From Candidatus Omnitrophota bacterium (GTDB lineage Bacteria; Omnitrophota; Gorgyraeia; Tantalellales; Tantalellaceae): a DNA stretch of 50,732 nt. The position numbers were made by a program, and so were the translations under genes. The stretch is from contig JBDRBG010000022.1 in NCBI GenBank assembly GCA_043823005.1, positions 1 through 50,732 on the forward strand, in the 5' to 3' direction. This document shows positions 735 through 30,265 of the stretch, in pieces. The stretch's first letter is position 1. Every line of letters begins with the position of its first letter. The notes under the pieces were generated by a model. The model ran no database searches. It was not told the origin of the DNA and saw nothing but the letters and a program-made list of their open reading frames with translations.

Positions 735-2046
735 TTACGCTTTAATCATCACTTCTCTTAAATAGCGTTCATAATACCTTCTAATATTGCTTTCAAGATC
801 AAAAGCCCGCGTTTTCGGCTTATACACAAAAAGCCCTGAGGGTTTTTCCTCTAGCCCGGGCACAAGATATTCCATATCGCCCTGTTCACGTGAAATCAAA
901 AGATTAAAAAATATTTCATATTGATTAACATTGGACATTGCTTCAGGTGACATGTTTATCTGTAATAAATTATATTTTGAAGCAATTGTACTATACTTCA
1001 ACGACCCGTTTATGCATCTAAACCCTGTATTCAGAGGATCCACCCCTTCACAGGCATTACTTAACTTTGTGTAAATATCCCCTGTTTCATACTGCGCCCT
1101 GTCAAGAATAACAACATCATCTTCTGATACAATTCTATCCAGCATCCATATATCCATAAGCATCCGCTTAAACGTATCTTTTTCTTCTCTTGTCATGTTC
1201 TTCTCAGGCGCGACAATAAAAAACTTATCTTTATTCGGATCCGATGAAACTGTCAAGCCTTGCTGGCGCCGGCGTTTTTCTATTTCAAGGCCGGGTGGAA
1301 TTATTGTTGATCCGTCTTTTAAATAGATATTAGCTCCGTCAGCAAAATGAACCAGATAATGTGTTTTTCTGTTATCTACTGCCCGCTTTAAGTATTCCAC
1401 ATGACCTACTTTTGAATCTGTTTCCGAATGAAAAATACTAAACGCTTTTTCTATTTTTATTTGATAAAGACTTTTTTCGCTTAAGCTATAAGACCTTCCC
1501 TGAGGCAGAATTCTGGCGATTATATCCGAATTAACCGCAAGGTCTTCCAGAAGTTTTGCCACCTCCTCATTAATTTCTTCTAATACTTCAACTATCTCAG
1601 AAGTATCTACACCCGCAACCACTTCATTTGAGGAATCAATAGAATCAATCTTATCCTGCAATTCTTCTATTTTTCTCTCATGCGTATCCAGTTCTTCCAC
1701 AGTAAAAGCCCCATGCAATCGATTTTGCTTCTTACTCTGCAATACAGGAATAATATTTTTCTCAGCTTTTTCAATAAAATCCGTTATGATTTCCGCAACT
1801 TCCGAATAAAGATTCCCGCCATTAAACTCAACACTTTCATCTATACAGAAAAATAAACACGCTAAACCTGCAGTCATCCCTTCAAACTGCTCGAAACGAT
1901 CGACAGAACCCTTTATCCTTAAAATGTTTTCTACCCCGGCAATATCCTTTAACCTCTCTATGTCGTCTATTTCGCCGGACTGTTTTTTAGCCTGATCCCT
2001 TAATTTGTCATATATATTTTCAGGAAGCCCCACAATCACCTTTACA
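735..2046 (-). other. Conserved C-terminal domain of unknown function (paralog at 32139-33248)
   Basis: Aligns by eye: HYLVHFADG/HYLIHYADG, PPGLEIEKRR/PLGLEIQKRR, NQYEIFFNLLIS/NQYEVFVNLLIS, YERYLREVMIKA/YERYVLEVLVKA. Confidence 0.9.
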
Positions 2047-5000
2047 TTATGACTCTTTTTAGTAATACTCTTACGCGCTTTCACTATACGTTCTTGAAAT
2101 TTTCTGTCTCTTTCAGTAAGTAATTCTAAGCCTGAACAGGCACGCACCTGTTTTAATATTCTTGCAAGCTCCGGATGGATCCTTATTATTTTTCCTGCAT
2201 CAGGGATTTCCACCTCTTCAGCCAGTAGATCTTTCAACGCATCCAGCGCTCTTTTTTCGCGTATTCTTTCACTTCGATGAAATCTTTTCCAGATAAAACC
2301 TCCGAACTCTTCAAAAGTCTCAATAAAATCTTCCACCCGGTTTTTTTTGCGTTCTTTTACTATACGCTCATAGTTATTTCCTGTTTCAAAAGCATCCGAT
2401 ACTATAAGCACGGTCATCAAAAGACATAACATGGATTCACGTTCACGTGAAATCTTTCCTGCTGAAATACCTTCTTTGAGCCGTCTCTCAAAAACATTAT
2501 AATCATGATGAAATCTTATCAAAAGTTCCATTTCAAGAGAAACTTCTATGTTATTTTTTCTAAGAAACTCAATCGAGTCTCTTCCATGGTTAAATATGTT
2601 TTTTACTACTATCTCTTCTTCATCGGAAAGATCTTCCTTAAGGTTCCTCTTTAATACGATATATTTTATATACATCCGATATAAAGGATAATAATCGCCT
2701 GTTTCTCTTGCTTTATCCATCGTTATCCTTACATCTTCTATATAAGGAACATTTTTATCAATAAGAACTTTTGCGCTGGCCCAATCATAAATCCCTATTT
2801 CCGTCGGTTCTACGCTTCCACCCGGCGCGTTTTTAATGCCTATGTCCATTCGATGTTTAGCTTTTTTAAGATGCGGCGCCAGTTTTTGTTCCGCTCCGAG
2901 ATCATGTAATTGAATGGCTCTTTTTAACAACAAAAGATCATATTTTTTAAACTCGCACCCTTGATCCTTAAGTTTTGCGACTATTAACCGGGCTATTGCT
3001 TCAACCCTGTTCGAATGTTTTTGGGTACGCGAACTCATATTTTTCAATAATTCTTTTATTATTTTGTCTCCTTCCGGACTCATTATCCGCTTTTTCCGAA
3101 AATCAGGCATATTATAAATCGACCGGCGAGGAATAAATATAGTCTTCTTCATCATATTTTCGGTTACTTGCTCAAAAATACAAAGATTTTTTCTGGTTTT
3201 CAAAGTCCCGGGATCCAGAATATTCCCGAGTTCTTTATATTGATCTTCTTCAATAGTCGCCAGACTGCCGTTTGATAAAACATACAAATAGGCCTTGTCC
3301 TGCCCGTCATAGCTATACCTTACTTTCATATTATCACTAAAATTTTTCTTCATAGTTATTGCTATATCTTTAAAATCTTTATATCCTATAACATATTTAT
3401 CATTCTCTATATCTTCCAAAACCCGGCTTCTTCCAACACGTCTATACTGGTTAAGTTTCCATTGAAGGTTCTTCAAATAAAGCGTTTGCTCCCTTAATAA
3501 TTTACCTATCTCCCAAATATCATCTTTATTTTGCCCGGTTACTATTGTACGAATCTGCACTTCTTTTTCAGGATAGTACTTTTTTATCAAATCTAACATC
3601 CGCATTACGTTACGAAACTGCCATTTTTGGCGGGTAAAAGAATTTGTATTTTCATCATGCCCATCCAAAGATAAAGATATCATATTAACATAAGGCATTA
3701 TCTTATCTGTATCGCTTCTCTCATACATATATATATCATTCGCAAAAAGCCATGTTGTTATACCTTTTCGCTTCGCGCATTTTAAAAGTTCCGCGAGATG
3801 CGCAAGTGAATATTTGCTTCCGACAGTAAATACAAGACGCCGCATACCGTTTTCATACATAACATCTATCATCTTTTTCTGCGTTTCAAGATTAGCAGAC
3901 GCATGATCCGGAATATTGGCTTCCCAGGATACAGGACAATTACGGTCGTATTTTTCGCTTACGAGAAAATCCATGCCCGGAGGTAAAATACCCTTTCCTT
4001 CTGTTTCTGAAAAATGTCTTTCAATAATATTTTTAAGCCTCTTATAGCTTACAGAATCTGCTTTAAGAGTTGTCTTTTTAAAGATTTCATATACATCTCC
4101 CATGCAGAATTTCTTATAATCCCCGGGATCTGAGATCCTCCAAATACCGCTCATTTCTTCAGGACCGATCACTCTTTTCTGGCCGTTACTGAAAACTTTT
4201 TCATGTTTGCAGGTACGCGGATATAAATACATTCTAAGGCCCCAACTCTTATCTCTTATGATAAATTTATCTACTTCACATCCGGCTTTTTTTACTATTT
4301 CCTCCAGGTCATTACACCGTTTCGCAAATAAATTAGGCTCATCAAAACTTCCTTCCACGACAAACGCGGCTATCGCATGATCCCTATCAGGATAATTTAT
4401 TACCTCTGATATAATCTTTTCGCCATTCTTGTCCCTGGCAACAGACTGAATCTCAAATAATTCTACAGGCGCTTTTTCTCCTCTTTTAAAAAGGTTAATA
4501 TGCAGATGCTTTGTGAATTTAGCCCCGTATTTCCCGGGCCATGTTATTTGCCAATTTTTCAAGCCTTTAAGCATGGTCAAAACATCATAAAAATACTTCG
4601 GGTTCACGTCATCCTGCGGCATATGCTGTGAATTTATAGCTATAAACTGTGAAGCAAACACCGGAGCGGGTCTGGGAGAAAAGGTCCAATCGTCAGTTTC
4701 CGGCCGAGAAACCTCATTACTCCATTCCGAAACCGAACATAGATCGCATCTGCCTGACTCTCTTTCTTCTTTTATAGTCTTCCTGATCTTTTGAATATCA
4801 GGATCCCCTGTTGTACGGTCAAGAATTTTACACATATTCACACCGGGAGCAACAGACTCCTCTTTCTCCGCATTAATATATTTTTCTTTAAGAAAACCAC
4901 TCGCAATATTTGCTTTGATGCTATTATCAAGCACTTCATGCAAGTTAGAATAATCATAATATATATTAGGTGCTTCTTCTGCTCTGAAAATGTCCCTGAC

Positions 5001-8000
5001 TTTTTTGATTATAACACCTAAAAGAGGCAAAACCGCAAGCATACCCCAAAAATGGGAACGAAAAGATTCATGTGTATATATAAGCTGTTTGATCTTTTCG
5101 GGTAAATATTCAAAAGCAGGATTATAAGTAACTCTTCCGCTAGACTGCCTATAAGCTATATCTTTACTCCTGGCTTTTTCAAGAAATTCGATATCATTTT
5201 TTAAAAGTCTATTTGAAGCACGATCACGTAACATATCATTGCAAAATGCGTCTTTCACAGCTTTTGCCATAATCCCATACCGCATACCGCACATAAAAAG
5301 ACCGAAAAATAAAACAAGCGCTCCCATCTGTTTTCCAAAAGAAATATCACGCGTAATAAGAAAAAATAACCAACTGGCTATACCCCAAAAAATACAAGCT
5401 ATAAAAAATGTCCTTTGCCATTTGACTGCGGACGCGACATTAAAAGCATGTTCTTTTGTTTTGTCCGCATCTTTTGTTAACTTGCTTAGCACAACTTTCA
5501 CATCCTGGGCTTTCGATTCTATGGCTTTCGGGAGCTCTTCTACTACCACTGAAAATTGCATTCTTTTCTCCTGAGAATCTTCTGCTTCTACTGTTTTATT
5601 TTGAAACAGTTTTTTTTTGCGTCTCAACATATCTACGGGATATTTCAACAACCCCTGACTGGGCATGACCAAAGCAATAATAGGCCAAAAAGGTTTTTGT
5701 CTGGAAATATCCGTCATATATTGCGTAGCCATAGATTTATTTAAAAACATAACTATTACAGGTATTGTAAGTTTATTCCGGGCAATTGTTGTAAGTGTAT
5801 TAGCCTGGCCTTTAAGTACCACAGCCATCAATGATCGATCTTTAAGTATTTCTTGAACTTCTTTGCTCAATTTATGTAAAAACAGGCCTTCTCCTGAAAA
5901 CCCCAGTTTGATTACTTTTATTTTTCCGTTTTTTTCATGTTCTTGAAGCACAGGATGAGCCTGAATTATATCTTTAATCCCGCTATAATCAATATCTGAA
6001 TATGAAAACCCGTCTTTAGCCGCAACCACCACTCTATGCCCTATACTTATTAAAAATGCCCACACAAGAGCATCTATTTCCGCTTCGCCGAAATTATCCG
6101 GACAATATAAAAATGTACCTTTTTTATTTCCAAATACAAGGTTTTCAACAGCGCTAAATCTTTTTTCAAACTTTTCGGGTAGTTCCTGTCTTGTTATCCT
6201 GTTCAGCATTTGCTTTATCTTTTCATTATTTAAATTGGAAATAGATTCCAAACTTGTTACGTCAAAAAGTTTTGGGTCCATAGATAAGTCTATAAAATTG
6301 GCCCTGACTGCCAAAAGAGCCAGTCTTTTAAATAATGTTCTGGCTTGCCTTTTATTTAATTTCCCGGCTCTCATAGCTTGCGGCATCTTTCGAACGGCAT
6401 ATTTTCTTAATCCCAGAATAAGCGAATCCATAGTTTTGACACTAAGATCATCAGGCTTATATTTTTCTACTTTCGCCTGCACCTTGGCAATAATATAGCG
6501 TTTGATCTGCTGAGGGGTAAATTTGGAAATATTAGGTCCCGGACACGGCAGTTTTTTCCCCGGCTCCGGAATTATAGCATTAAGATCTTTTTGCATATCT
6601 TTACGCACCACTTCCCATTCTTCTTCACCCATATACTTATCAAAAATGCTTTCCGCGAAAGACCTTAATGACCGTTCAATATCTTCTCGATCATCAGAGG
6701 TTCTTTCTTTTAAGAAATAGGGCCCCGGAACATACGCATATGTTTTCCTTCGTTCTTTATTTGGATTTATGGTACAGTTTAAAATATCCAGCTCCTCCGA
6801 AATATGTATATCTTCTACTTTTTCATCGCATACAACGATCTCTTCTCTTATATCTGAATTTTTTACTTTAGCTCCATCCGAAACGATTGAATCAAAAACC
6901 GTGGAATTCTCGACCAATGCTCTATACTCTACATATGAGTTCCTGAATATAGAATGATATAATGAAAATTTTGTGTCATATGTAGCCGGTTGTTTATACC
7001 GATAAATATTCAGATCACGTCTTCCCGCGAAAATAGTGTTTTTCGCGCGCACACCTTTCAGGTTAACATGTTGTCCGACATGAGTCTTTCCCGAAAGAAT
7101 GATCTCCCTGGACCTGCCGTCAAGCATAGTACCGTTTTCTATCCTAACAGTATCTTCAAGAATAATATCTCCGTACAAAAAGATCTGGTCAATACATTTT
7201 TTGCCGTTTTTATCGCTCCCGAATATCCTCATTAAAACCTTTTCGTCTGATTCCTGCTGGTTCTTTTTGAGCCATATCGTTGTCTTTTTATTAGTAATAA
7301 GCCCCAGATCAGCCAGGTTTATATCTACAAGTTTGGTCCTTTCCAAACAACCTGTTTCCGAAGGAATCAGATAACGGGTAGTTTTATCGTGTAACCGGTC
7401 CTTTTCAAAAATTTCATCTTTTGCCACTACCCCCTGAAGTTTGACTCCTCGTTCAACTACGCAATTGCCGCTTAAACAAACATCCCTGTATTTCCCGTCT
7501 AAAAAAGCACCTTTTTTAACCCTGACCGTGTACTCCAGATGAATATGTCCGCGTAAACGTGTATGACGATAATCTTCGTCCTTCGTTAAATTGTCACCAA
7601 ATATATTAGAAATAATATCATCCCAATCCCAATCAAAATCAAGGCCCTTTTCGCTAAAAGTAGAAATAGATACAGTCGTAGCTTCGTCATCTATGTCAAC
7701 TCCCAGTTTTCTTATTTTCTCCAGGATCATTTCCTGCAATTCGTCCCTGAAATCAAGTGTCCTTTGAAGTGTCTTAGTAGCTACAGGAGCCGGGTCTGTC
7801 CCAATATTGATAAGTTTTAACAAAGGTTCCGGATCCTGTTCCCGCGTTTGTCTAGTTTTATATTCTTCTGCCGCGATATTCACAAAATCAGTCGCCCAGT
7901 ATTCATGTAGTCTGCGTTTTTGCTGTCCTCTTTTACCCAGATCATGACAATAATCTTTAAATAAAACTCCTCTTTTTTTATAAGTCCATCGAGCGTTAAA

Positions 8001-11000
8001 AATAAAAATATTCGCGTTCGTTAAATAAGCAGGACTCTTCAGCTCCCCGTCTTGATACAATTTTTCCTGAAGAGAAGCCAGTTCTTCGGATTCTTGCTTT
8101 TCTTTTTCTCCCATAGAGTTCCACTCTTTGAGCCCTGTAGCAATTTGCCCGTATTTTGGGCTTTGTTCAACAAATATCCTGGCCCGTCCCTTCCCTCTTC
8201 CATCAACAGGAGTTTTAGCGGCAATTGTAATTTTAGGTAAAGTGTCTCTTTGCGGAGAAATCCGGTTTATTGTTTTTAAATATCCTATAAATATATAATT
8301 CTCGTATTTATCAAGCATCCATCCGGGAGAATCAGCGTGGACAATAACAGAATATGCCGCTTCTTCTAATTTGCCCTTTTCTTCAAGTTGTTCCAGAGCT
8401 TCAACATAAGCGCTTCCATGCCCCTCCCCGGAATCCAGAACAACTATACAATTTTTACCTAAAAGAGCGTCTTTACGGTTTTGATCTATATACTCTTCTT
8501 CTTCTAAAACCGCTTCAAAAATAATTTGTGAAATCTTGTCAGTCAAAAACTGGCCCCGGGCGTTTCCTCTTCCTGTCACGCCATAAACAGCGTCTGATAC
8601 CAAATGTACAACCATGGGAAGATCCCTGATCCCGTCAGAACGGCGCGTATATCGCATTTTAGCCCTTATTATATCTCCCACTTCCTTTCTTATCGGAGCT
8701 TGTTCCTGTTCATAAATATATCTGCTATTATATGTCAGTCTATGAATTAATCCTTTTTCGCCGCATATTCTCTCTTGTATACGCTCCTTAATTCTGTCAG
8801 AAATTTCCAGTCCCGATTTTAAAATCCTTAAAGCAGTCGAGGTATCTATTATTACAACATCCTCCAGTTTTCCAAACGCGGCTGAAATCCTGCTTAACTT
8901 GATCTGTGTATTATACTGGTCAGGTTTAAAAACCGGTTTTACAATAAGACCGTCAGGAGAAAAACGGGTCCCTTTTCCTCCTCCTATTACTATCACTCTA
9001 AGCCCGAAACGTTCCGTAAGATACTTAATCAATTGTTTTTCGTCCTCAAAATGTTTACCTTCCTCTTTAAGAATAAGATAAATAGTGTCAATAAACTCCC
9101 GGGCATTTTTTTTAGCTTCTTCCGGATCTTTCAGCCTCTGATATTTTACCAGGTCCCTGCCAAGCACTTCATCTTCCATAAGAATCCTAATATGACATTT
9201 TTTCGCATATTCGGCGATGACTTTTTCCAACGGGTCAAGGCCTTTCCATATCTTTCCTTCGATCTCATCTATGTTCTGCCATTCAAGATTTTTTTGATTA
9301 TTACCGGGTGGACTTTTAGCTTTTTCGTCGCGAAATAATTCTTTAAGAATATTTTTCAAAATAAGTTTTGCTATATTCTCCGGCTTAGAAAGATCCATAT
9401 CATTAAGAAAACCTTCCACAAAATAATATTGTCCGTTTTTCCTGAACGCGCAAAGCATTTCAAAAATCGGTTCCTGGCTGTCACGGATCTTATAATATCC
9501 TATATTTTTCCAAAACGTTGCTTGCACAAGCTCCCCTATTCTGTGAACTATTTGTTCTCTCCTATTGACATCAATAGCCTGTGTTTCATTAATTGTCCGT
9601 TGAAGAAAACTGCAAGCGGCTCGAATCTTTCTAAAAGATCTGATTTCTTCCTTTTCTCCGATCAATACATCTTTTCCTCTCTTTAAAATCTTAGATTTTA
9701 TATGCTCTGCCCTATCCTGCCTCAACCCTTCTGTCCTTATCATAAAAAAAGACGTGTCTGTAGACGCTGCTGCAGAGAATTTTTCTCCTCCGGGATTATC
9801 ATAATTTTGAGCGATATAAAGACTCTCCTGGCTATCAAGGAGGCTATCTTCCGAAGCAGAAATAACATTTTCTTTATTAAAACCGCACATATAAAGAGAA
9901 TTTATGACATCCTGAAGGTCTATCGTTCTCCTTAATTTATCCACCTCGACGATAAGTCCGCGATACCCCGTATTCTCTCTATAAACAACCATACTGTCCC
10001 TTTTTAAATCATAAAGACCCGGGCCCTTTTTCGTTTCAGGATCTTGCCCGAATTTCCACATGTTTAAATAAGCGCTGATCGCCGCTATATCAGCCTGTTC
10101 TTTTTCTTCTTCATTTACGGCAACAGAGGCTTTATATTCAACCAGTTCATTACCTCTTGCTATCTCACTCCCCACAATCAAAACATCATCATAGATAAGT
10201 TTCCGCGGGTCTACTATGTCTTTTGAGATACTAAACCCCCCTTGCCTTCCTCCTGCAAGTTCAGGCATAAACGCCTTAAGTATCTTGGGCCTGTAATCAT
10301 ATTCCTCTCTTACAGTATAGATCCTGGGCACATGGTTTTCTTCCTTAGCGCTTATTTCTTTCCAAAGCTCTGTTGACTCTTTTATCAAAGCCATATCAAA
10401 AATCGTATCACCTGAAACCGGCCATATAACTCGAATTTCCCTGTCTTCCGCAGATCCGTCTGTCATATAAAACGTTACATGATAAATCACTTTATGCCGG
10501 CCGTTCACAAACCATCTTATACAGATATTGTCCACATTATCCGGATCTATATCCATATTCCTGACAAATAATTTATCCCGCCTTAACCGCCTTTCAACAC
10601 GGCTCATTCCATCAAGAATATCAGCTTCTCTGACACTTTTCAGATACATCAAATATTTATCCCGTTCATAACAGCCTTCGTTCACCAAAACCTTAAGCGC
10701 TTCCAGCGCAAGCTGTCTTAACATTCTTGATTTGGAATATTCGACTATATTTTCAACTTTTTCGATATCCGCAATATCCGCTTTTTCAGGATCTCCTTGT
10801 ATTGACGAAATTGAGTCTGCCGCGACTACTTCACTTCCTCCTATTTCTCCCAGGCCTTCCGGATCTTCAACCTTATGAAGAACTAATTCCTGAAACATCA
10901 AGTCATAAAGCTTCGGAAATCTATCTTTAATGCCGGAATGCTCTAAAAGCAGCCATATCCCCATACGGGATATCCCCATTTCCGTAAGAATATGCTGAAC

Positions 11001-17078: not shown

Positions 17079-20000
17079 TTACACCGAAAGCAATGCCTTT
17101 CTTTGTGCTTTATTTTTATCTATTATCACCTCAATGTCTTTTTTCACTGCTCTGGGCAGAAAAATCAAAAGTTTCTCTTGGAAATTAGAACGAGATCTAT
17201 CGACATATTCAAGCTCTGAAATATCGCTTCCCTTAAACGCTTTAATTGCGGCACGTAACATTCCAAAAAACCTAAGGTCCCAATAGCATCCTACCGTTAA
17301 AAGATTCATATCAAATTGCGAAGAATCGATTCCCGCTAGAAATGCCCTTTTATCAAGAACGATTTTCTCGTCTTTCCACTTACCCTTAAAATAATCGAGC
17401 GCTTCCATACTGCCTAATACCATTACATCAGAAAAATCTCCAGGAACAACCAGATTATCTGTAATTTCCCGCGCCCAGGATTCAATTGATTCATATTGCT
17501 TTTCCCTGCCGGACCATTTTCGAATAACCACATTTATATTATCAATCCCCATAGATTCCAGCGCTCCTTTCAAAAGTAAAGGACTGCTCACAATCGAATT
17601 GACCATATCCCGCACACTTCGATCTTCAATAAAACCCGGAATCCAGCTAAAATCAAAAGCCATAGTAACGGTTTTTCCTTCGCGTCCGGCGCTCCTGGCG
17701 CACATAATAATAGCGGCAAAAATATCATTGACGATTAACTCATTCTTCTGATTATTCTTATCAGGCTTTTTTGTTTTGAATTCTTTTTTTGCTTCATCCA
17801 CAGCATGTAAAATAATTTTATCCAAACCTCCACCGGATGATTTATTCTTTAGCTCAACCCCTTTTAATTGTTCAGAATTCTTCACACTCTTTCCTTTTAC
17901 ATTCAAATTCCTTTGTTTTACCGGCAAAAGACTTATTGCTTTCCCTGTTTTTTCCGATATTATCCTTTTTTCGACCAAACTGTCTATCATCGCTTTATGA
18001 ACCTGATTACTCCCGTTATTTGTACCGACAGCCATATTTCGGTCCGATAAAACTGTGTGAAAATCACTGCCATTAGTCGTTAATAATCGGTTCTTTATTG
18101 CCAACCCGTTGAAATAAATCGAATCTATGGGTTCCTGTCCCCGGGAAAAAGCCTCGATACCCGCTAATCCACAACTCTTTAATTTAGATATCATTTTTTC
18201 AAAACTCTCAGCACCCATTGCTTCTTTCTGTCCGCTTGGATGAGCAAATATCGAATATCCTTTATTGCTATTGATGAATTTAATAACCGTCTCCGTATTA
18301 TCCAGCCACCAGACTCCGCCGTCTTCCTGTTTTCCAGGCTTGCCAAAATATTCATATGGATGATCGAGAAAATACCCATTAAGCATATAAATACAATCTC
18401 TGATAAGTTTTTTCTTGCCCTCAGAATCACTTCTAACCCCCGCTTCTTCGATCTTATCAGCCAGCTGTTTTTCCATTGTTAATATAGCCTTCGACTTGTC
18501 TTTTCCAAGCTTTAGTTTATATCCTTTTTTTATACACAGGTCAAAAAGATACTCTAACGGCATCGCAAACTCACTAAGACTTGAAGGTAATTTATTCCAA
18601 AATTCCGCCTCATTTCCCGGATTTTTCATAGCCGTTTCAATATCTTCCTCTCTCATCCTCTGTATTTCAACAAAAGTATCCGCATCAAAAGATCTGCCCC
18701 TAGCCCTTTCATCTCTTATCCCGGCCAATATCAATTCTCTGTAACTCATGCTGAATTCGGGGTTATATTCCTTTAATTTCGTCCAGGACATTAACACCCA
18801 TTTCTTAAACACATTTGCCGAAAATCTCAGTTTTTTATGTAGTTCATTTAACCTGTCAAAATAATCTTTTTCTTTTTCATCAGAAAGCCTCGGGAAAAGC
18901 CCTACTATATCGGCACAATAAAAATTCCCCTTAAACAACGGTCTGCCATCCAAATCGTTACCCTGATAAAGACTAGTTATCTCCACTCCAGGAATCACTT
19001 CAACCCCCTGGCCAGAAGCTTTGCGCAAGAATTCAGGCGTATATATTTCCATATTCTCATGATCCGTTATAGCTATCACTTTAAGCCCTAATTTCCGAGC
19101 TTCATTAAGTATTTTTTCCGGCATCCATTGACCATCAGAAGCGGTGGAATGCATATGCATATCTATGCAGGGTTTCTCCGTTACTTTTTCAGGTATCATG
19201 CCGGATCGATAAATCAGGACTTCTTTTGATTTGAACATCCTTTCATGTTTTTCACCATCTAACACCATATTCATTTCAAGTATTTTTCTTCTCGCCGCCA
19301 AACAGATATTTTTATCATCACCGAAAATTAAAACCACATATTTTTTAAGTGGATTAAGATCCTGCCTTAACCACTCCAAATGACCAAATAAAGCATTTTC
19401 TGCCTTCTTATCGTTCGCATACTCATTCCACAGATCCGCGTCAAAAAGAATTACCTGGATGTCTTTTCCAAAAACCTCTGTGTAGCGATCCCGAAAAAAT
19501 ACGGATATCTCTTTTTCTTTAGCATGAAGTATTCTTGCCCACGGCGAATTTTTAACCGTTTTTTTCATAAGTTCCCCGAACTGGGTTTTAATTTCATTTC
19601 TTATAGCACCATCGTCACACCTTACAAGTTCCACACCGTTATCTTTGTATCCATCTCTATTCCTTGCATGTTCGGAAAGAGTAGGGTCCTCTACCCCATA
19701 CACGACCCTTCCAACCCCGTAAAACTCGGCAAGAGCCCTTGAACAAGCATAACATGAATCGATATTTATATACATAACGGCTTTGCTCCAATCATTGAAT
19801 CCTTTTGCCGCCGCCTCTTTTAATGCCTGCACTTCGGCATGCACCGCTTTTACCCCGTGTTCCGTAGGCTCATCTAGTTTTTTCCTGGATGTAGTCACAA
19901 TCACATTACCATTTTTATCCACTATCCGCGCAACTACAGGCAGTGTTTTAAAACTTTCATCCTCCGCCATTATTGATCCAGCATAATCGATAATGTCACG

Positions 20001-23000
20001 CATATGCTTTTTATCTTTTTCAGTAAACTTGCGGCTATAATCTACTGATTTTATAGCCTCCTCTTTATTCAGCTTATTACCCGGCATTATTTGACTCTTT
20101 TCATCCTCCGCGGGAAAATGAAGCATATCAGAAAGTATCTGTTCACGACCCGTTTTTTTTAAGTCATGCAGCTCTTTATCTGACATTTTCTGGGCATCCG
20201 CTGAAATCTCTTTGAACTTTTCTGTTCCTTTGACTTCATCAAACGCGTCAAGTATTTTTTTTAGTTCATCTTCAGGTATCTCTGACCTGTTTTTCAAATA
20301 TTCCCGCGTCTCATCCAAGGTTTCCAATCTAGAATCCTTATTCAAAAAGATCCGTTTAAAAAGATTCATTCCCTTTTCTATGATATCCGCAGCCACCAGC
20401 AAAGAGGCAATAAGCATAACTTCCCTTTTTTCGTCCAGGCTCCAATCAGTTCGTCCATCAAGATATCCGCTAAGTTCCCTGATATGATGATGAAAAAGAA
20501 CGGCAGTTTCAACTGCCCGGCTTATTGAAATCCCGTTATTTTTAGCCGCGCTTATAGCCGCACATGGTTCATAAATATCCAAAACAAAATCTTTGTCTTC
20601 ATCGCTAAACTCATTTCCTCTTTCAGCAAACATATCGCTAAAAAAACAGTATTCATTTACATTCCGTGATTTTTTTTCCGGAAGCAATATCCCCACTTCT
20701 TTGAATTTAGCCCTTACTCTTTTCTCTGCCTCCGGAGAGATATTTTCAGTCTTCTCCGGAGTGCCCAGATCATGGATAACACACGCAAAACTTACTTCAT
20801 CCGCCAATTTTTTGGGCAATCCCCATCTACGCCCCAAAAGCAACGCAATGCGCTTAACCCGCTGAGCGTGATTTTTTGCAAATTCACTTTTATAAAATTC
20901 AAGCGGATATCTTGATCCCACCGGCCCTGACTGATTGTTCCCGCTAATCGCTTCCCCTCCGACATAAAAAGATCCTGTTCCTTTCTGTTTTATCGGAATA
21001 GCCCTGGCAATTATTTTTGAAGTGATTTCACTGAATATTTTTCTGTTTTCAGGATTATTAAGTGTACTATCCGAAAATATTGTGCCCAGTTCGAGATAAT
21101 TGTTATTCTCTGTCGTAAGTATCATCCCGTTTGCAAGCATAAATAAATACGCTTTATCCCGGGCACGCGGGCTATACCGGGTATTAAGTTCCCGGAACTC
21201 TTGAGTAAGCGGCTCAACTACAGATTGAAAATCATCATACGAAAGAAAAAAAGGATCCTGGCTGCTGTTAGGATATAACATAACAGTCCTGCCTCTTCTT
21301 TCATATAAACTCAATTTCCAATGAAACGCAGGCATTCCTTTAGTTTCTTTCATCAACAAACGACCTATTTTTCGTAAATAGCTTTGATTTGTTTTTGTCA
21401 TAATAGTTAAAACCTGAATTTCTTTATCCTTATATTTCTCTTTCATCATCCTCAGCACCCGAAGTGTATCCGTAAAACGCCCTCTTGGTTTAGCGCCCTG
21501 CACATTTGAACTTTCATCATACCCGTTCAAAGGAAGTGATATCATATGAACATACGGCATAATTTTCTGCGCTCTCTCCTCATTCATAAACCTTCCATTC
21601 GTGTATAAAACCACGGTCATTCCTTTATCATAAGCATGTTTTAAAAGCTCCTGCAAACGGTGGGCTAAAAGAGGTTCGCCTCCTGTAAAAATTAAGCGTT
21701 TTACTCCGTTCTCATATAAACGATTTATCATTTTTTTCTTTTCTTCAAATCCGGACTCTATATGTTCGGGCATATTAACGCCAAAACATACAACACATTC
21801 TTCCGAACATTTTGTTGTAACAACAAAATCCATGCTTGGCGGCAACACTCCTCCTGCTACCAGACACTTTTCAGCCCGGCTGTTTTCGCTTACAGAAAAC
21901 CCGGACGGCTCCCCGATTAAAGTGCCGCATGTCACTGTTCTTACGTGAGATACGTCAGACAGGCTGCCTCCTGTACGAAAAGCAAAAATATTAGAAAAGC
22001 GCATGTCCTGTATAGCTTTTATATAAATATCCCTTTTATTTTCATCCGGTGGCTGAAAAACATCTGTAACAACATTTAAATTCGTTACTTTTATATGAAA
22101 AGCGCCTTCATATTTTTCCCTCCGGCATATAGAGTTAATTCTTTCCGCCATTAATCTCGCATCTTCTTGAGTATCATTTATACCTTCCATTAGAGTTACC
22201 CGAATGTCTAGGCGGTCAAGAATTTCAAAAGTCTTATTGTAGTCAATAGCAAATTTTATAATATCGTCAAAATCTGAAAGAAATTGGGGATTGCGAACTA
22301 ATTCCCTTCTTTTTTTATCATCCGAAGATTGCAAAGATAACTGCAGCATTGGCGGACGTATATTTTCATCCAAGCTAAAGATGCCTTCTGCCATTTTTTT
22401 CATTCTTTCCAGCATCTTTATATTTCCAACACTGCTTATACGCGTTTTTGTTATAATTTTTTCTTTTTCCAAATCATAAACCGCACCTAAAACTGCTTCT
22501 GGATAAAGAGCCGCTTCTCCCATACCCATCACACTTAATTGAATGTCTCCGGTTCCAAATAAAGGATCTATATTGTCTCTGACAAATTGTATAGCCAAAT
22601 CTACCTGGCCCTTTATCTCATCCCGCGTTAAACTAATATTAGGGATTTCTCCGTTTATTGTTTTTTCTCCGGTTCCGCAAAATTTACAACCAGGCGTATT
22701 CATGCAACCCGTAGCCACGGACACACAAATAGATTCCTGCCCGGGCCTTAAAACAGCAACTGTTTCAATACTTATGCCGTCTATACGATTGACCTCTGCT
22801 TTAAATAAAACATTCTTATTTTTTAAATCCAGTTTAATAGACTGAACCGTCAAAGTATCTGTTTTATAAGAATTGAGATCTATATTACTATATTTATATT
22901 TTAATTTCGGGATTTCAATTTCACGGACAGTAATTTTTCCTTTTTCCGTAATTATGTATCTCAAAAGCGTATTTGGATAAACAAAATACGACCTAAAGTG

Positions 23001-23630
23001 CCGCGGTCTATCCTGCTCTATTAATACGCCCCATACAGGGTTCCACGATTCAACAAAAAGCTTTTCTGCCTGATCTATGGTAAGATTTAAAGAATTAATA
23101 TGCGTAATAAGATCTGATATGAAAGAATCATGAGCAGCACTTAATCTCTTTGAATTTTCGGAATTCTGAAAGGAATCAATAGTATATTTAATTTCATACG
23201 GCCCGATGTTAAAGTTTTTCTTATTTCCTGCCCCGTTAAAAGGCTGCCTCTTATCCGATGTGAACTGAATGATACATTTTTTATCTGACTGCGCATAAGG
23301 TATCAATACTTTTTCACCTTTGATTTCTACTCCGGATAAATCTATCCCTGAAGGAGATCTGCCCAATTCAGAGGTCATTACTGATTCAAAATATTTAGGA
23401 GGAAGAGGTTTTAATCTTTTTTCCGGGTTACCCAATAAGTATTCGGCAATCGTATAAACAGTATTCAGTTCTTCTGCTATTTCCCTGAAATCCCGATCCT
23501 GTAAAAAAGAGTAAACAGCAATTTTGTCATATAACTTAAAAGGAGAGATTTCTACACCATAACAACATGTGTTTATTAAAAACACTCCCAAAACAAGTAT
23601 AATTATAATACTCCGAAGAATTCTATTCAT
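17079..23630 (-). CDS. Large multidomain protein (~2183 aa): signal peptide, RlmN/Cfr-like radical SAM, second radical SAM, HD, zinc deaminase, PHP phosphoesterase, C-terminal domain
   Basis: ATG 23630 with GGGTG upstream. N-terminus MNRILRSIIIILVLGVFLINTCCYG. Motifs ICVSVATGCMNTPGCKFCGTG/MGMGE/TCGTL; CSEECVVC/FTGGEP; HDLG; HAE..CYAC; DMHMHS..SDG/TDH/AHP/GSDFH. Confidence 0.92.
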   Translation of the reverse strand: MNRILRSIIIILVLGVFLINTCCYGVEISPFKLYDKIAVYSFLQDRDFREIAEELNTVYTIAEYLLGNPEKRLKPLPPKYFESVMTSELGRSPSGIDLSGVEIKGEKVLIPYAQSDKKCIIQFTSDKRQPFNGAGNKKNFNIGPYEIKYTIDSFQNSENSKRLSAAHDSFISDLITHINSLNLTIDQAEKLFVESWNPVWGVLIEQDRPRHFRSYFVYPNTLLRYIITEKGKITVREIEIPKLKYKYSNIDLNSYKTDTLTVQSIKLDLKNKNVLFKAEVNRIDGISIETVAVLRPGQESICVSVATGCMNTPGCKFCGTGEKTINGEIPNISLTRDEIKGQVDLAIQFVRDNIDPLFGTGDIQLSVMGMGEAALYPEAVLGAVYDLEKEKIITKTRISSVGNIKMLERMKKMAEGIFSLDENIRPPMLQLSLQSSDDKKRRELVRNPQFLSDFDDIIKFAIDYNKTFEILDRLDIRVTLMEGINDTQEDARLMAERINSICRREKYEGAFHIKVTNLNVVTDVFQPPDENKRDIYIKAIQDMRFSNIFAFRTGGSLSDVSHVRTVTCGTLIGEPSGFSVSENSRAEKCLVAGGVLPPSMDFVVTTKCSEECVVCFGVNMPEHIESGFEEKKKMINRLYENGVKRLIFTGGEPLLAHRLQELLKHAYDKGMTVVLYTNGRFMNEERAQKIMPYVHMISLPLNGYDESSNVQGAKPRGRFTDTLRVLRMMKEKYKDKEIQVLTIMTKTNQSYLRKIGRLLMKETKGMPAFHWKLSLYERRGRTVMLYPNSSQDPFFLSYDDFQSVVEPLTQEFRELNTRYSPRARDKAYLFMLANGMILTTENNNYLELGTIFSDSTLNNPENRKIFSEITSKIIARAIPIKQKGTGSFYVGGEAISGNNQSGPVGSRYPLEFYKSEFAKNHAQRVKRIALLLGRRWGLPKKLADEVSFACVIHDLGTPEKTENISPEAEKRVRAKFKEVGILLPEKKSRNVNEYCFFSDMFAERGNEFSDEDKDFVLDIYEPCAAISAAKNNGISISRAVETAVLFHHHIRELSGYLDGRTDWSLDEKREVMLIASLLVAADIIEKGMNLFKRIFLNKDSRLETLDETREYLKNRSEIPEDELKKILDAFDEVKGTEKFKEISADAQKMSDKELHDLKKTGREQILSDMLHFPAEDEKSQIMPGNKLNKEEAIKSVDYSRKFTEKDKKHMRDIIDYAGSIMAEDESFKTLPVVARIVDKNGNVIVTTSRKKLDEPTEHGVKAVHAEVQALKEAAAKGFNDWSKAVMYINIDSCYACSRALAEFYGVGRVVYGVEDPTLSEHARNRDGYKDNGVELVRCDDGAIRNEIKTQFGELMKKTVKNSPWARILHAKEKEISVFFRDRYTEVFGKDIQVILFDADLWNEYANDKKAENALFGHLEWLRQDLNPLKKYVVLIFGDDKNICLAARRKILEMNMVLDGEKHERMFKSKEVLIYRSGMIPEKVTEKPCIDMHMHSTASDGQWMPEKILNEARKLGLKVIAITDHENMEIYTPEFLRKASGQGVEVIPGVEITSLYQGNDLDGRPLFKGNFYCADIVGLFPRLSDEKEKDYFDRLNELHKKLRFSANVFKKWVLMSWTKLKEYNPEFSMSYRELILAGIRDERARGRSFDADTFVEIQRMREEDIETAMKNPGNEAEFWNKLPSSLSEFAMPLEYLFDLCIKKGYKLKLGKDKSKAILTMEKQLADKIEEAGVRSDSEGKKKLIRDCIYMLNGYFLDHPYEYFGKPGKQEDGGVWWLDNTETVIKFINSNKGYSIFAHPSGQKEAMGAESFEKMISKLKSCGLAGIEAFSRGQEPIDSIYFNGLAIKNRLLTTNGSDFHTVLSDRNMAVGTNNGSNQVHKAMIDSLVEKRIISEKTGKAISLLPVKQRNLNVKGKSVKNSEQLKGVELKNKSSGGGLDKIILHAVDEAKKEFKTKKPDKNNQKNELIVNDIFAAIIMCARSAGREGKTVTMAFDFSWIPGFIEDRSVRDMVNSIVSSPLLLKGALESMGIDNINVVIRKWSGREKQYESIESWAREITDNLVVPGDFSDVMVLGSMEALDYFKGKWKDEKIVLDKRAFLAGIDSSQFDMNLLTVGCYWDLRFFGMLRAAIKAFKGSDISELEYVDRSRSNFQEKLLIFLPRAVKKDIEVIIDKNKAQRKALLSV
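18050..19165 (-). other. PHP (TrpH-like) phosphoesterase domain
   Basis: DMHMHSTASDG, AITDHE, PGVEI, AHP, GIE, GSDFH. Confidence 0.9.
19600..20010 (-). other. Zn-dependent nucleoside/tRNA deaminase (TadA/CDA-like) domain
   Basis: PVVARIV, HAEVQAL, SCYAC, RVVYGVEDP. Confidence 0.85.
20180..21845 (-). other. Radical SAM domain (intact) plus HD domain
   Basis: CSEECVVC, FTGGEPLL, YTNG, then HAQRV...HDLG...FHHH...AADI. Confidence 0.88.
21915..22780 (-). other. RlmN/Cfr-like class A radical SAM methyltransferase domain
   Basis: IETV, ICVS..GC.....C..C.TG, MGMGE, SLQS, GINDT, TCGTL (equivalent to ACGQL). Confidence 0.85.
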
Positions 23631-23696
23631 GTAAGCACCCACATTATCACTAAAAAATCAGATCTTTGTAACGCACAATTAATATTCACACAAGAA

Positions 23697-24297: not shown

Positions 24298-25458
24298 ATG
24301 ATAAAACGTATAATGGAAAAAGTAATAAAAAATTTATCTACAGGCTTCCCTTCTATAGCTTTAATTGGGCCGCGCCAATCAGGAAAAACTACGCTCGTAA
24401 AAAAAATCTTTCCCAAAAAACCATATGTTCTTTTAGAAGACCCTGAAACACAGCAATTTGCCATTAATGATCCGCGTGGTTTTTTATCCCAATTTCCCTC
24501 CGGAGCTGTTATTGACGAAGCGCAAAAAGCGCCTCAACTTTTTTCATATCTACAGGGAATTATAGATAAAGAAAACAAACCGGGAATGTTTATACTCACC
24601 GGATCACAAAATTTCTTATTAATGGAAAAAATCACACAATCACTCGCAGGACGTATTGCTATTTTAAAATTACTTCCATTCTCCGTTAAAGAGTTAAATT
24701 CAGCTAATATATCTTTTGAACATTATGAAGACTATCTGTTTAAAGGATTTTACCCTCGTCCATACGACATAAAAATTGATCCGTCTAATTTTTACTCAAA
24801 TTATGTTCAGACCTATTTGGAACGAGATTTACGTCTATTAAAAAATGTTCATGACCTGTCAACCTTTCATACTTTTCTTAAAATGTGCGCCCATCGTACA
24901 GGACAATTAGTTAATCTATCTTCCATAGCCAACGACTGCGGAATTAATCATAATACAGCAAAAGCATGGCTTTCACTTTTAGAAACAAGTTTTATAGTTT
25001 TTCTTCTGAGGCCATATTATAAAAATTACAACAAAAGACTTGTTAAAATGCCCAAACTCTATTTTACAGATCCCGGGCTCGCTTCATATCTGGCAGGAAT
25101 ACAAGATACTAACCATTTATCCAACCACCCGCTTAAAGGTCCTCTTTTTGAAACTTTGGTTATCAGTGAATTACTAAAAAAAAGGTTTAACTCGGCAAAA
25201 GATAATAATTTATATTTCTGGCGCGATAAAACAGGACACGAAATTGACTGTCTTATAGAGAACAGAAGTCAACTGTTTCCTATTGAGATCAAATCCGGCC
25301 GCACTATATCAGAAGACTATTTTAAAAATATAAAATACTGGAACAAGCTTTCAGGAAATGATCCCGCGCTATCGTACATTGTTTACGGCGGCACAGCTGA
25401 GCAAAAAAGAAAAACCGCCAACATACTAACATGGCAAAAAATATATACTCTTAATTAA
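24298..25458 (+). CDS. AAA_14 ATPase with DUF4143 (PD-(D/E)xK-like) C-terminus
   Basis: Walker A GPRQSGKT, Walker B IDEAQ, LTGSQ, KMPKLYFTDPG, EIDC...PIEIKS. Confidence 0.92.
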   Translation: MIKRIMEKVIKNLSTGFPSIALIGPRQSGKTTLVKKIFPKKPYVLLEDPETQQFAINDPRGFLSQFPSGAVIDEAQKAPQLFSYLQGIIDKENKPGMFILTGSQNFLLMEKITQSLAGRIAILKLLPFSVKELNSANISFEHYEDYLFKGFYPRPYDIKIDPSNFYSNYVQTYLERDLRLLKNVHDLSTFHTFLKMCAHRTGQLVNLSSIANDCGINHNTAKAWLSLLETSFIVFLLRPYYKNYNKRLVKMPKLYFTDPGLASYLAGIQDTNHLSNHPLKGPLFETLVISELLKKRFNSAKDNNLYFWRDKTGHEIDCLIENRSQLFPIEIKSGRTISEDYFKNIKYWNKLSGNDPALSYIVYGGTAEQKRKTANILTWQKIYTLN

Positions 25459-25526
25459 GTATTTATAAGAAGATAACCTTTCAGCATTCTCTATAGTTCT
25501 AAAAAAAATTGATACTTTTTTTCATC

Positions 25527-25592
25527 GTAGGAGCCGTCTCCTGACGGCGAACGCTACATTTTGTCGGGGCTCATCAGGAGACCCCTCCTATG
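25527..25592. repeat. Family-2 GTAG-type REP pair
   Basis: GTAGGAGCCGTCTCCTGACGGCGAAC followed by an inverted degenerate partner ending CCCTCCTAT. Confidence 0.75.
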
Positions 25593-25656
25593 TACCCAAA
25601 TCACATATAGTTATGACTTTTCACTTTTTCCGATATTCCAAATTTCAAAAATAGCA

Positions 25657-25684
25657 TTGATTTTTATAGGGCATATGGTATACT
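25657..25684 (+). promoter_or_regulatory. Promoter of HTH-Fic gene
   Basis: TTGATT, 16 nt spacer, TATACT with TG extension. RBS GGAGG at 25724-28. Confidence 0.6.
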
Positions 25685-25733
25685 ATAATTGTAGATAAAT
25701 TTTGATTGTGCCATATCATACCCGGAGGCAAAT

Positions 25734-26648
25734 ATGAAAGTTCCTTTCTTTTCTGACAGTGAAAAACTACAAAAAATTATCAACACCACTGGTATATCAC
25801 GAACAGCTCTTGCGAAACGGTTGGAAGTTGACTACAAAACAATCTGGCGTTGGCTGGACAATGGGGTAACTCCGCAAATTAGACAAAGCCGTTACATAGA
25901 CCAGCTTTTCAAAGAATATGTTTGTCTAAAAGAAATCGTTTTTAAATTAAAAAAGCACGTTAAAAACCCGCTTGAAATCTTAAAGCACGATGAAAAAATT
26001 CAAAACGATTTCTTCTCAAACATGACCTATCATTCCAATGCTATTGAAGGAAGCCGAATGACTTTGAAAGAAACAGAGGCGGCTATTGCCGGCAAAACAG
26101 TAAAAGGAAAGGAATTATTTGAAGTTCTGGAAGCTATTAATCACAAAAACGCTATGAAATATATGTTAAAAACAATCTCCCCGGACTTTAAAATCAACGA
26201 AAAGTACATTCTGAAATTACATGAAATAGTCATGTATAATTTTAACAATAAACTTCCCGGTGAATACAGAACAGGATATGTAAATTTGACCAATACTGAT
26301 ATAATCCTGCCTTCTGCCCAAGATGTACCCTTAAAAATGGGACAACTCATCAAGAAGATAAATTTCTACAACAACGATCCCATTACCAAAATAGCCAAAG
26401 ATCATTACGAATTTGAAATAATCCATCCTTTTTTTGACGGCAACGGCAGAGTAGGCCGCTTACTTATGGCAACTCAGCTCTTAAGCCAAGGTCTTACGCC
26501 GGCAGTAGTAAGGATAGAAGACAGATACAAATACTACATAGCATTAGAAAAATGTCATTCAGGAGATTTTAATAATATCACTCAAATGGTGTGCGACAGC
26601 ATAATGGCTGGGTATGAGTTATTTTTCCCTGCATTAGGGCATCTTTAA
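25734..26648 (+). CDS. Fic family AMPylase with N-terminal XRE-like HTH
   Basis: Fic motif HPFFDGNGRVGR. Inhibitory motif SNAIEG (class II). HTH ISRTALAKRLEVDYKTIWRW. Confidence 0.93.
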   Translation: MKVPFFSDSEKLQKIINTTGISRTALAKRLEVDYKTIWRWLDNGVTPQIRQSRYIDQLFKEYVCLKEIVFKLKKHVKNPLEILKHDEKIQNDFFSNMTYHSNAIEGSRMTLKETEAAIAGKTVKGKELFEVLEAINHKNAMKYMLKTISPDFKINEKYILKLHEIVMYNFNNKLPGEYRTGYVNLTNTDIILPSAQDVPLKMGQLIKKINFYNNDPITKIAKDHYEFEIIHPFFDGNGRVGRLLMATQLLSQGLTPAVVRIEDRYKYYIALEKCHSGDFNNITQMVCDSIMAGYELFFPALGHL

Positions 26649-26659
26649 AAGTGTGTTCC

Positions 26660-26750
26660 AATGGTTTCTGCCCACACCACGATATATTTTTTGAATTAAT
26701 CCTTCTTTTTGCAGAAAACTAAGCGCTTGTGTCGCAACTGACAAAGATTT
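26660..26750 (-). pseudogene. Fragment resembling an AbiEi-type antitoxin winged-HTH
   Basis: Translates KSLSVATQALSFLQKEGLIQKIYRGV, then an apparent frameshift. No start or RBS. Confidence 0.4.
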
Positions 26751-26789
26751 TTCTGCAAGAGATGCGGGAAGGTTTTTTGCGCGCCTTTA

Positions 26790-28187: not shown

Positions 28188-28210
28188 GATATAAGCATAC
28201 CATATAAATC

Positions 28211-28324
28211 ATTTTAGTCAATGGTCATTATCCAAATTATCCAACATTAAAAAGGAGCATTCAGAAGACTTTACTTTAATAATATCACTCAAATGGTGTG
28301 CGACAGCATCATGGCTGGGTATGA
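28211..28324. repeat. Junction of two duplicated segments: 28211-28259 (= 29550-29598) and 28258-28324 (= fic 3' end 26556-26617)
   Basis: Direct comparison: GTCAATGGTCATTATCCAAATTATCCAACATTAAAAAGG occurs twice. TTTAATAATATCACTCAAATGGTGTGCGACAGCAT(A/C)ATGGCTGGGTATGA occurs twice. Confidence 0.92.
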
Positions 28325-28332
28325 ACTTTTTT

Positions 28333-29493: not shown

Positions 29494-29610
29494 ACCCTAA
29501 GTATACTGTATGGCTAATTCAAAGTCAAGGTTAGTATTAGCATGGAGGTATTTTGGTCAATGGTCATTATCCAAATTATCCAACATTAAAAAGGGGCAGG
29601 CAGAATCTCA

Positions 29611-30153
29611 CGTCTTTGCGAAGGAAGCTTTAGCGACCGCGGCCCTCCAGAGGCGGATCCGCCTTTGACGGACAATCTCTATTTACCATGCACCAACTCC
29701 TATTCGCTTTTTTAAAGACCGATTTCCGGATTTTTCACCACAGAGCCTTTGGTCACAGAGCTATTCAAAACCCAAAAATATATTTTTTTTCTCTTCTCGC
29801 CCCAGTTTATTTCCCCCCTCCGTCTTTGCGAGCGAAGCGAAGCCCTACCAATGCTCTTATTCATCGCATTTCCAGGATCATTTTTCGTTATTCACAAAAA
29901 ATGTCAATCTCTTTTCCCTTCAGCCTTCAACCTTGAACAGCTCCGAAGAAGCCTTACCCGTGCTCTCTGTGGTTTATTTTTTTCTTTTTATTATATTTCT
30001 ATCCGAGTTTGCCGAGCCGTTCACTGAGCTCACGGCTCGCAATGACGAAATTTGAACCTTTTCCCCTTTATCTGTTCGGGGTCAGGAGACCTCTCCTACA
30101 TATTTTTTTTCAGATTGCCACAGGCCTCGTCTACCTCGGCCTTCGCAATGACG
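29611..30153. repeat. Mixed intergenic repeat cluster
   Basis: Family-1 copies at 29611-29678 (interrupted), 29821-29843 (truncated), ~30006-30047 and 30112-30153. Family-2 copy at ~30074-30099. CACCACAGAG repeat at ~29736. Confidence 0.85.
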
Positions 30154-30265
30154 AAATTGGGATTTTGACTTTTCCATTTTTCCTTTAAGCTTTTTCCTTA
30201 TTTCCGCTCGCCGTCAAAACCCCCCCAGAGTACGAACGCAATTGTCCGATACACAGCGGGTTAAA

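Follow-up and report, generated by a model that had tools for sequence, protein, structure and literature searches.

A strictly C-terminal domain of modular giant proteins in Omnitrophota as a possible recognition or docking tag

The last ~280 residues of two giant proteins, A and C, encoded in a stretch of DNA from a Candidatus Omnitrophota bacterium (assembly GCA_043823005.1, contig JBDRBG010000022.1, positions 1–50,732; the whole stretch of 50,732 nucleotides is referred to as the window) can be assigned, by sequence comparison, to one family, named AC-type here. The AC-type domain is uncatalogued, strictly terminal, and portable. The two ends are homologous, and copies of the domain keep their last residue, show no catalytic conservation, close exchangeable cargo, and are coupled to an N-terminal leader and a conserved N-terminal module (N-module). 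Tentatively, the domain is regarded as one of several lineage-specific, non-catalytic end-domains on leader-bearing modular or giant proteins of Omnitrophota, where it might serve as a terminal recognition or docking tag. This reading is preferred because the domain is strictly terminal, its tail is the best-conserved part, its last residue is conserved, and the host proteins have a bookend layout, that is, conserved ends around variable cargo. Three very long genes (A, B, and C) lie in the window, all on the minus strand; the features of A and C that concern the domain are given below.

735–16400, minus strand: gene A, 5221 aa; stop codon at 735–737
738–1574, minus strand: AC-type end-domain of A, residues 4943–5221 (BLASTP against C, profile matches, model)
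738–833, minus strand: terminal tail of A (last 32 aa); strand, Pro, amphipathic helix, ...EVMIKA
32139–50732, minus strand: 3' part of gene C, more than 6197 aa; 5'-open, runs off the contig end
32142–32963, minus strand: AC-type end-domain of C, window residues 5924–6197; ends ...EVLVKA

The AC-type end-domain

In BLASTP the C-termini of A and C aligned with 37% identity over 284 columns (E = 6e-48). In a full-length blastp comparison the only stretch common to both was A 4943–5221 against C 5924–6197 (E = 3.6e-42), so that the cargo of A and C differs. Upstream of this block a single weak high-scoring segment pair of 43 aa was obtained (E = 5e-4); some other hosts align with A from about residue 4750 onward. 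A preliminary description of this DNA had called the last ~370–440 aa of the two proteins homologous and their cargo largely different; homology and difference in cargo are both borne out, the clear block being shorter, at ~280 aa. The ends given there, EVMIKA for A and EVLVKA for C, are read in the translations (last residues ...YLREVMIKA and ...YVLEVLVKA, respectively).

A two-sequence profile was searched exhaustively against 1.84 billion representative proteins and gave AC-type matches in 74 clusters at E ≤ 1e-3 and in 53 at E ≤ 1e-10; the 74 clusters were re-scored with a 35-sequence profile. The match ends at the last residue in 67 of the 74 clusters, 1–5 residues off in six, and 11 residues off in one. 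Matches of the shallow profile that had seemed partial or internal proved on re-check to be full terminal domains or copies cut by a contig end. Restriction to extreme C-termini, as first proposed, is confirmed for 74 of 74 clusters (allowing ≤11 residues), none of which holds an internal copy according to the 35-sequence profile. Word-indexed homologue searches gave only two proteins when longer ones were sought and only six by region. Three related proteins with public names are labelled Candidatus Omnitrophota or Omnitrophica. A six-frame search of 401 sampled genomes of the phylum recovered the domain from 23; the family of the window accounts for 19 of these (out of its 24 genomes), and the domain is also present in one of two and two of five genomes of two other families, and the longest open frames carrying it reach 12,215 aa. 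At every fetched locus the match reaches the stop codon, and at all genome loci uncut by a contig end the domain is strictly terminal.

The domain had not been recognised as a named family, and this stands. Scanning the C-terminal regions with Pfam (E ≤ 5) and with NCBIfam (E ≤ 0.1) gave nothing above cut-off; a profile search gave no match among PDB sequences at E ≤ 1, Foldseek gave none against PDB at E ≤ 1e-3, and the ESM Atlas held no usable match for the domain. A known catalytic domain was matched neither by hidden Markov model (HMM) search nor by Foldseek. Sub-threshold matches of C-terminal regions to GGDEF_GdpP (E 5e-4 to 1.7e-3, 19–21 bits against a cut-off of 30), Nuf2, and WH_DRP were dismissed as chance.

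An AlphaFold model of the domain (m0fe302a03c19), built from a 35-sequence alignment, reached a predicted local distance difference test score (pLDDT) of 82.4 and a predicted template modelling score (pTM) of 0.75, with core residues 88–270 above 90. In the model a helical lead-in of ~70 aa precedes an alpha/beta core of ~210 aa with a Rossmann-like fold, in which parallel strands alternate with helices; the C-terminal end, according to DSSP, consists of a last strand (269–272), a proline, and a terminal helix (281–299). With an exhaustive aligner the best structural match was the haloacid dehalogenase (HAD) phosphatase MDP-1 (1u7o; Z 9.0, root mean square deviation 3.5 Å, 135 residues, 7% identity); other HADs scored Z 5.7–7.4, and CheB, LacI-type, and other Rossmann-like folds Z 5.7–6.9. 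Models without a clear Foldseek match typically reach a best Z of 7–8, so that Z 9.0 is only ~1–2 higher; the likeness to HADs appears weak, at the level of the fold class.

In the 35-sequence alignment L166, Y240, Y289, L297, and A300 are nearly invariant, and no polar residue is invariant. Residues at least 80% conserved are Y272, P274, D280, E284, Y289, R291, E295, L297, and A300 in the tail, and R122, R123, and D216 outside it; polar residues at least 90% conserved within subgroup 1 are E118, D133, D137, N203, Q226, and Q239. The best-conserved part of the family is the final strand–Pro–helix tail (..DLExEIRxYERYxxEVLVKA) with its charged residues D280, E284, R291, and E295, an amphipathic helix with mean hydrophobicity −0.21 and hydrophobic moment 0.44. 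Of the 35 copies, 34 end in Ala, against a background of 61 of 798 open reading frames (ORFs) of at least 300 aa in the same genome. HAD motif I, DxDx[TV], is absent from the end of strand 1, which reads HFADG, HYADG, HYIDG, HFSSG, or TAVDN; the Asp at this place is not invariant, and the end-domain gives no match to those HAD Pfam models by which the true HAD domain of A is detected. Lack of catalytic conservation, combined with a best-conserved tail of fixed last residue, points to a non-enzyme whose very end matters: the domain is apparently non-catalytic, with its very end as the functional part.

Leader, N-module, and other end-domains

The layout of the host proteins was compared from both ends, with the following features in the window and in other contigs of the source genome.

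14415–16364, minus strand: leader (MRQKRIFFKTISLLVAILFFYEQMVWA-SGEP) and then conserved N-module of A
17079–23642, minus strand: gene B, 2187 aa; leader, then cargo, then BX-type end-domain
17082–17750, minus strand: BX-type end-domain of B, last ~223 aa; tail ...LLIFLPRAVKKDIE...KALLSV (iterated HMM)
Contigs C74, C38, C69, C51, C89, C14, and C110: W-type end-domain, ~250 aa; tails such as ..IRPVNWENITEWKKHNDEILRAL

The N-terminal leaders of A and B are basic and then hydrophobic; the N-terminus of C lies outside the window. A leader consists of a basic stretch, ~12–14 hydrophobic residues, a polar Q/N stretch, and W/F-A. When ORFs were scored by a crude rule based on hydropathy, a leader was assigned to 14 of the 19 end-domain hosts and to 124 of the 423 remaining ORFs of at least 400 aa (Fisher p 1.2e-4). 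Among the five hosts that fail the rule, four show a leader-like stretch by eye; the fifth, on contig C91, has none in its own frame, and an overlapping upstream ORF carries one. Leader-like N-termini on the hosts agree with the preliminary description, in which the carriers were taken for signal-peptide proteins. For gene C the end of the window contig (C22, window 50592–50732) overlaps contig C29 exactly over 141 nt, C29 overlaps C67 (reverse) over 141 nt, and the frame is unbroken over the C22/C29/C67 joins; the joined gene would start at C67:16251, with leader and N-module, and the whole gene would comprise ~13,600 codons if both joins hold.

The N-module (~550 aa) heads 18 ORFs in the source genome, with D45, H47, Q53, E75, E112, E128, R424, N431, and H452 invariant in the 18 paralogues. 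Among hosts of at least 1500 aa, 17 of 31 have both the first ~600–650 aa of A (32–44% identity, at their own N-terminus) and the end-domain, and eight of these 17 have nothing else in common with A. In 18 bookend proteins the overlap of the middles is below 10% in 250 of 306 ordered pairs, and the identities of the N-end and the C-end are correlated (r = 0.52, a value reached in 0 of 2000 permutations). When only ORFs of the source genome complete at both ends are counted, the N-module is present in 6/6 AC-type or W-type hosts and in 0/12 BX-type hosts, and 6/9 ORFs with an N-module finish in AC or W. A class of bookend proteins can be delimited in this way, with leader plus N-module, variable enzyme cargo, and conserved terminal domain all found. 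All 41 genomes of the family (41 of 41) contain the N-module, with 4–35 copies among 40 related genomes (G416 has a single match), and it is present in 219 of the 401 sampled genomes of the phylum; as it is far more widespread than AC or BX, lineages pair it with different ends.

At two places (C115:19464–33806 and C91:7063–14818) a pair of adjacent or overlapping long ORFs resembles one bookend gene broken by a frameshift or stop. The leader is encoded by one member of the pair (in C115 together with the N-module) and an end-domain-like tail by the next.

On sequence grounds the N-module may have a hydrolase fold like that of the TIKI/TraB/ChaN superfamily. A passage of PMC6254334 describes a 2His/2Glu motif for that superfamily, with which the invariant His and Glu residues of the N-module agree; this is offered as a lead only. 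The ChaN/TIKI Pfam model PF04187 is touched by two of the 18 paralogues, below threshold (best E 0.038). A PDB profile search with the N-module returned chance EF-hand matches only.

The end of B belongs to a separate family, BX-type, as had been proposed for its C-domain: the last 506 aa of B show no homology to A or C in BLASTP (best E 5.4 and 2.4, respectively). Iterated HMM search found 15 BX-type copies in the source genome, all terminal. The domain is present in 45 of the 401 sampled genomes, from five related families and one other, and it is terminal at 28 of 30 fetched loci, with one contig-cut copy and one partial match. Of 41 copies, 32 end in Ala and 6 in Val. The BX-type model (m0a242c0f9a15, pLDDT 79.5) is alpha/beta and ends in strand, Pro, and helix; its best structural match is generic (Z 6.2; MDP-1 Z 5.4). 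The models would place BX-type and AC-type in the same broad Rossmann-like class, and common ancestry is not thereby proven. Contig C13 (61146–75947) encodes a 4934-aa leader-bearing protein with two SecA motor regions (SecA_DEAD, SecA P-loop, preprotein-binding), four HTH_8 regions (Fis-type), and a BX-type end-domain. The W-type is present in seven copies in the source genome, each ending a large protein, and its hosts complete at both ends all carry the N-module (5/5).

A similar tail in A and B had also been put forward. In profile–profile comparison of AC and BX the segment LLIFLPRAVKKDIE.. pairs with LFVYKPKTRAFDLE.., tail to tail (49.5%, E 1.7e-4, 24 columns); local hhalign of AC and BX gave 65.5% and 5.9e-5, and the W-type tails aligned in register with P 0.002 and 0.034, against P 0.045–0.76 for nine unrelated control pairs. 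The same segments that had been named are therefore aligned by profile, and the similarity claimed for them is weakly supported rather than clear. A tail-only HMM iterated on the source genome converged at five proteins, too short to unite the families. As a pattern the common tail of AC, BX, and W seems real; this does not prove common descent.

Cargo, secretion genes, and possible roles

Within 735–16400, minus strand: cargo of A; HAD, ARMT1-like, radical SAM (Pfam)
Within 17079–23642, minus strand: cargo of B; radical SAM, cytidine-deaminase-like, PHP (Pfam)
Within 32139–50732, minus strand: cargo of C; glycosyltransferase-2-like (GT2-like), PPDK_N (Pfam)
2307–3989 (A) and 20301–21851 (B), minus strand: radical-SAM block common to A and B (full-length blastp)
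C67:1987–15412, C51:29689–35446, and C65:4952–9651: RND/TolC-like loci; one precedes the start of gene C

A block of ~560 aa that contains the radical SAM domain is common to A (4137–4697) and B (598–1114), with 31% identity and E 4e-64, from which it follows that cargo modules are exchanged between proteins with different types of end-domain. The 23 other end-domain hosts in the source genome carry cargo of cytoplasmic type: two SecA motor domains accompanied by four helix-turn-helix domains (Fis-type), superfamily 1 (SF1) helicase, iPGM, carbamoyltransferase, NAD epimerase, ABC1 kinases, and ARMT1. Export of such cargo by a known route is hard to reconcile with its type, and classical export is doubtful. 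The part of C within the window has at least 21 hydrophobic segments. In A a single hydrophobic hairpin is present (residues 3664–3712), which should place both ends of A on one side of the membrane.

TolC-like genes are present in the source genome, and each of its three RND loci (four RND genes in all) includes a TolC-like gene and immediately precedes a leader-bearing giant gene on the same strand; directly before the start of joined gene C are a TolC-like fusion gene and two RND genes. In related genomes a same-strand N-module gene follows within 8.4 kb of RND in 6 of 30 assessable loci and is absent downstream in the other 24; on the upstream side it is found in 0 of 40 loci. The chance rate of ~2% per 8.4-kb span is a rough estimate, and related genomes are not independent. 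RND loci are few per genome against 4–35 N-module genes, and most of either are unpaired. At double-RND loci the TolC-like protein has a large N-terminal extension (frames of 760–1550 aa). The adjacency of TolC/RND genes is a hint and not a specific secretion gene set; the co-occurrence with such a set that had been expected fails, only 6 of 30 RND loci being paired. The domain had been interpreted as a C-terminal recognition signal for a dedicated export or anchoring machine. A recognition signal is reasonable; export by such a machine is doubtful given the cytoplasm-type cargo, and the search for the machine yielded none, only the modest TolC/RND enrichment upstream.

The features might alternatively belong to a two-step secretion or anchoring route, in which Sec would be used via the leader and an outer machine would then read the C-terminal domain, as the type IX secretion system (T9SS) reads its C-terminal domain (CTD). 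Leaders resembling signal peptides, in which the hydrophobic core is short and the end A-x-A-like, would fit such a route, as would a strictly terminal domain with a conserved last residue, portable across cargo, and the position of 3/3 RND loci (6/30 in related genomes) before such genes. The route is nonetheless considered unlikely: the cargo depends on cofactors or substrates of the cytoplasm (radical SAM, PPDK-like ATP domain, SecA, helicase, epimerase, kinase); 24 of 30 assessable RND loci are unpaired, and RND loci are outnumbered by N-module genes; a peptidase of the C39 type (PF03412) of type I secretion systems (T1SS) was not found in the 96%-complete genome; the fold is alpha/beta and not the beta-sandwich of T9SS; and RND pumps are not known to act as protein exporters.

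The fold itself raises the question of a degenerate HAD- or Rossmann-like domain, ligand-binding, regulatory, or cryptically enzymatic, which would sense a phosphorylated or nucleotide ligand and control the enzymes upstream. MDP-1 as the best structural match, followed by many HADs, is in line with this, as are the conserved R122–R123 and D216 and the polar residues of subgroup 1. Against it stand a Z score barely above the usual 7–8, a Foldseek search with nothing at E ≤ 1e-3, and the absence of motif I and of matches to HAD Pfam models; the invariant terminal position and the conserved last residue would also be left unexplained, and we hold a ligand sensor to be improbable. Still less credence is given to a completion or quality-control cap, by which the tail would mark a fully translated giant and be read by a protease or adaptor, or its absence would trigger degradation. 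Such a cap would make use of the conserved free C-terminal Ala and the tail, hosts of up to ~12–13 thousand aa would make truncated products common, and one gene for an S41 C-terminal processing protease is present. Many hosts, however, have only 800–1500 aa, S41 proteases are near-universal (10 of 14 control genomes), and a folded domain of 200–280 aa exceeds the needs of a degron.

The terminal recognition or docking tag is the reading we tentatively favour, and it could work as follows. The leader would take the protein to the cytoplasmic membrane. The tail would be presented as a final beta-strand, a Pro, and an amphipathic helix ending in a free Ala carboxylate, and would be bound by a partner, which we infer to be either the protein's own N-module or a common receptor. 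Both ends of a long polypeptide of variable cargo would thereby be fixed or sorted at the envelope.

Several points weigh against the docking tag. Tail binding, its partner, and the membrane side are inferred. The short cores and V-W-A-like ends of the leaders resemble those of Sec signals that are cleaved off more than those of membrane anchors, in which case the rest of the protein would sit outside the cytoplasm. The terminal helix (281–299) is modelled with moderate confidence only (pLDDT 60–72). The similarity of tails between families is short and statistically modest, and could be convergence or purely structural. Of the long matches, 14 of 31 are without leader or N-module and may be truncated. 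Among ten short or mid-size matches that were checked, six lie on contigs of 1.2–3.5 kb and are possibly fragments, and P0059 (1021 aa, labelled 'partial') lies on a 7.8-kb contig; three short hosts, P0014, P0027, and P0058 (352, 594, and 785 aa), lie on long contigs (7.8–43.5 kb).

It is also conceivable, with a very low probability in our estimate, that the two ends work as a pair: the N-module would bind or trim the free ...VKA tail and, perhaps with the TolC/RND genes found before some of these genes, commit completed cytoplasm-type enzymes (radical SAM, SecA-like motors, helicases, glycolytic enzymes) to an extracytoplasmic compartment or to delivery into host or prey cells. Such a sorting route would, if true, explain signal-like leaders on enzymes unfit for the periplasm.

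Omnitrophota are abundant, uncultured, ultra-small bacteria, and the location and handling of their giant multi-enzyme proteins are a standing puzzle. The end-domain (200–280 aa), or even the 30-aa tail, provides a small experimental handle on the location of these proteins and on their binders. If it is a docking cap, the organisation of polypeptides 5–13 thousand residues long at the membrane would be explained; if it sorts cytoplasm-type enzymes, it would point to a targeting route that is undescribed.

Neighbouring genes and comparison with known systems

The gap between B and C (24298–31558) holds four paralogous AAA_14/DUF4143 ATPase genes and one Fic-domain gene; at least 10 AAA_14/DUF4143 ATPase paralogues are present in the genome.

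24298–25458, plus strand: AAA_14/DUF4143 ATPase gene
25734–26648, plus strand: Fic-domain gene
26790–28187, minus strand: AAA_14/DUF4143 ATPase gene
28333–29493, minus strand: AAA_14/DUF4143 ATPase gene
30266–31558, minus strand: AAA_14/DUF4143 ATPase gene

Giant proteins of Omnitrophota with signal peptide or transmembrane segments and with radical SAM, PPDK_N, HAD, SecA_DEAD, and glycosyltransferase domains are described, and the same puzzle of topology is reported, in passages of two preprints (West-Roberts et al. 2023, bioRxiv 10.1101/2023.11.21.568195; bioRxiv 10.64898/2026.06.07.730766). The passages on protein termini and signal peptides in both preprints hold no description of the end-domain or of its pairing with an N-module, and literature searches on giant proteins and on C-terminal domains of Omnitrophota gave none either.

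Like T9SS cargo of Bacteroidota, the hosts combine a signal-like leader, diverse cargo, and a domain at the extreme C-terminus. The T9SS CTD measures ~70–100 aa. It is a compact Ig-like 3+4 beta-sandwich, as described in a passage of PMC11285876; the end-domain, in contrast, has 200–280 aa and an alpha/beta Rossmann-like fold, matches no Pfam model, follows cytoplasm-type cargo, and comes from another phylum. The extreme C-terminal position together with an N-terminal signal is found here; the fold and a match to a family model are not. With HAD phosphatases (MDP-1) the end-domain model may have in common a three-layer alpha/beta/alpha Rossmann-like core, and it differs from them in its 7% identity, the lack of motif I and catalytic residues, and the extra terminal strand and helix.

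Sortase and exosortase signals (LPXTG, PEP-CTERM) consist of a short motif, a hydrophobic transmembrane helix, and a basic tail, unlike the amphipathic and charged AC-type tail. Substrates of T1SS of the RTX type differ in that the present proteins have leaders, no Gly-rich repeats (no RTX-type Pfam matches in the giants of the window), and no C39 peptidase; TolC-like genes are present. Dockerins are ~70-aa Ca-binding repeats, non-catalytic and usually C-terminal on signal-peptide enzymes, which they attach to a scaffold, and are not restricted to the last residue. The AC-type domain resembles cellulosomal dockerins as a non-catalytic C-terminal module on varied enzymes, and differs from them in having no sequence relation and no identified cohesin-like partner. 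MARTX toxins, in which conserved N- and C-terminal arms frame exchangeable effector domains according to a passage of PMC6254334, differ in that RTX repeats, an autoprocessing cysteine protease domain (CPD), and a T1SS-type signal were not found here and an N-terminal leader is present; the likeness to MARTX is one of architecture only, with conserved ends around variable enzyme domains.

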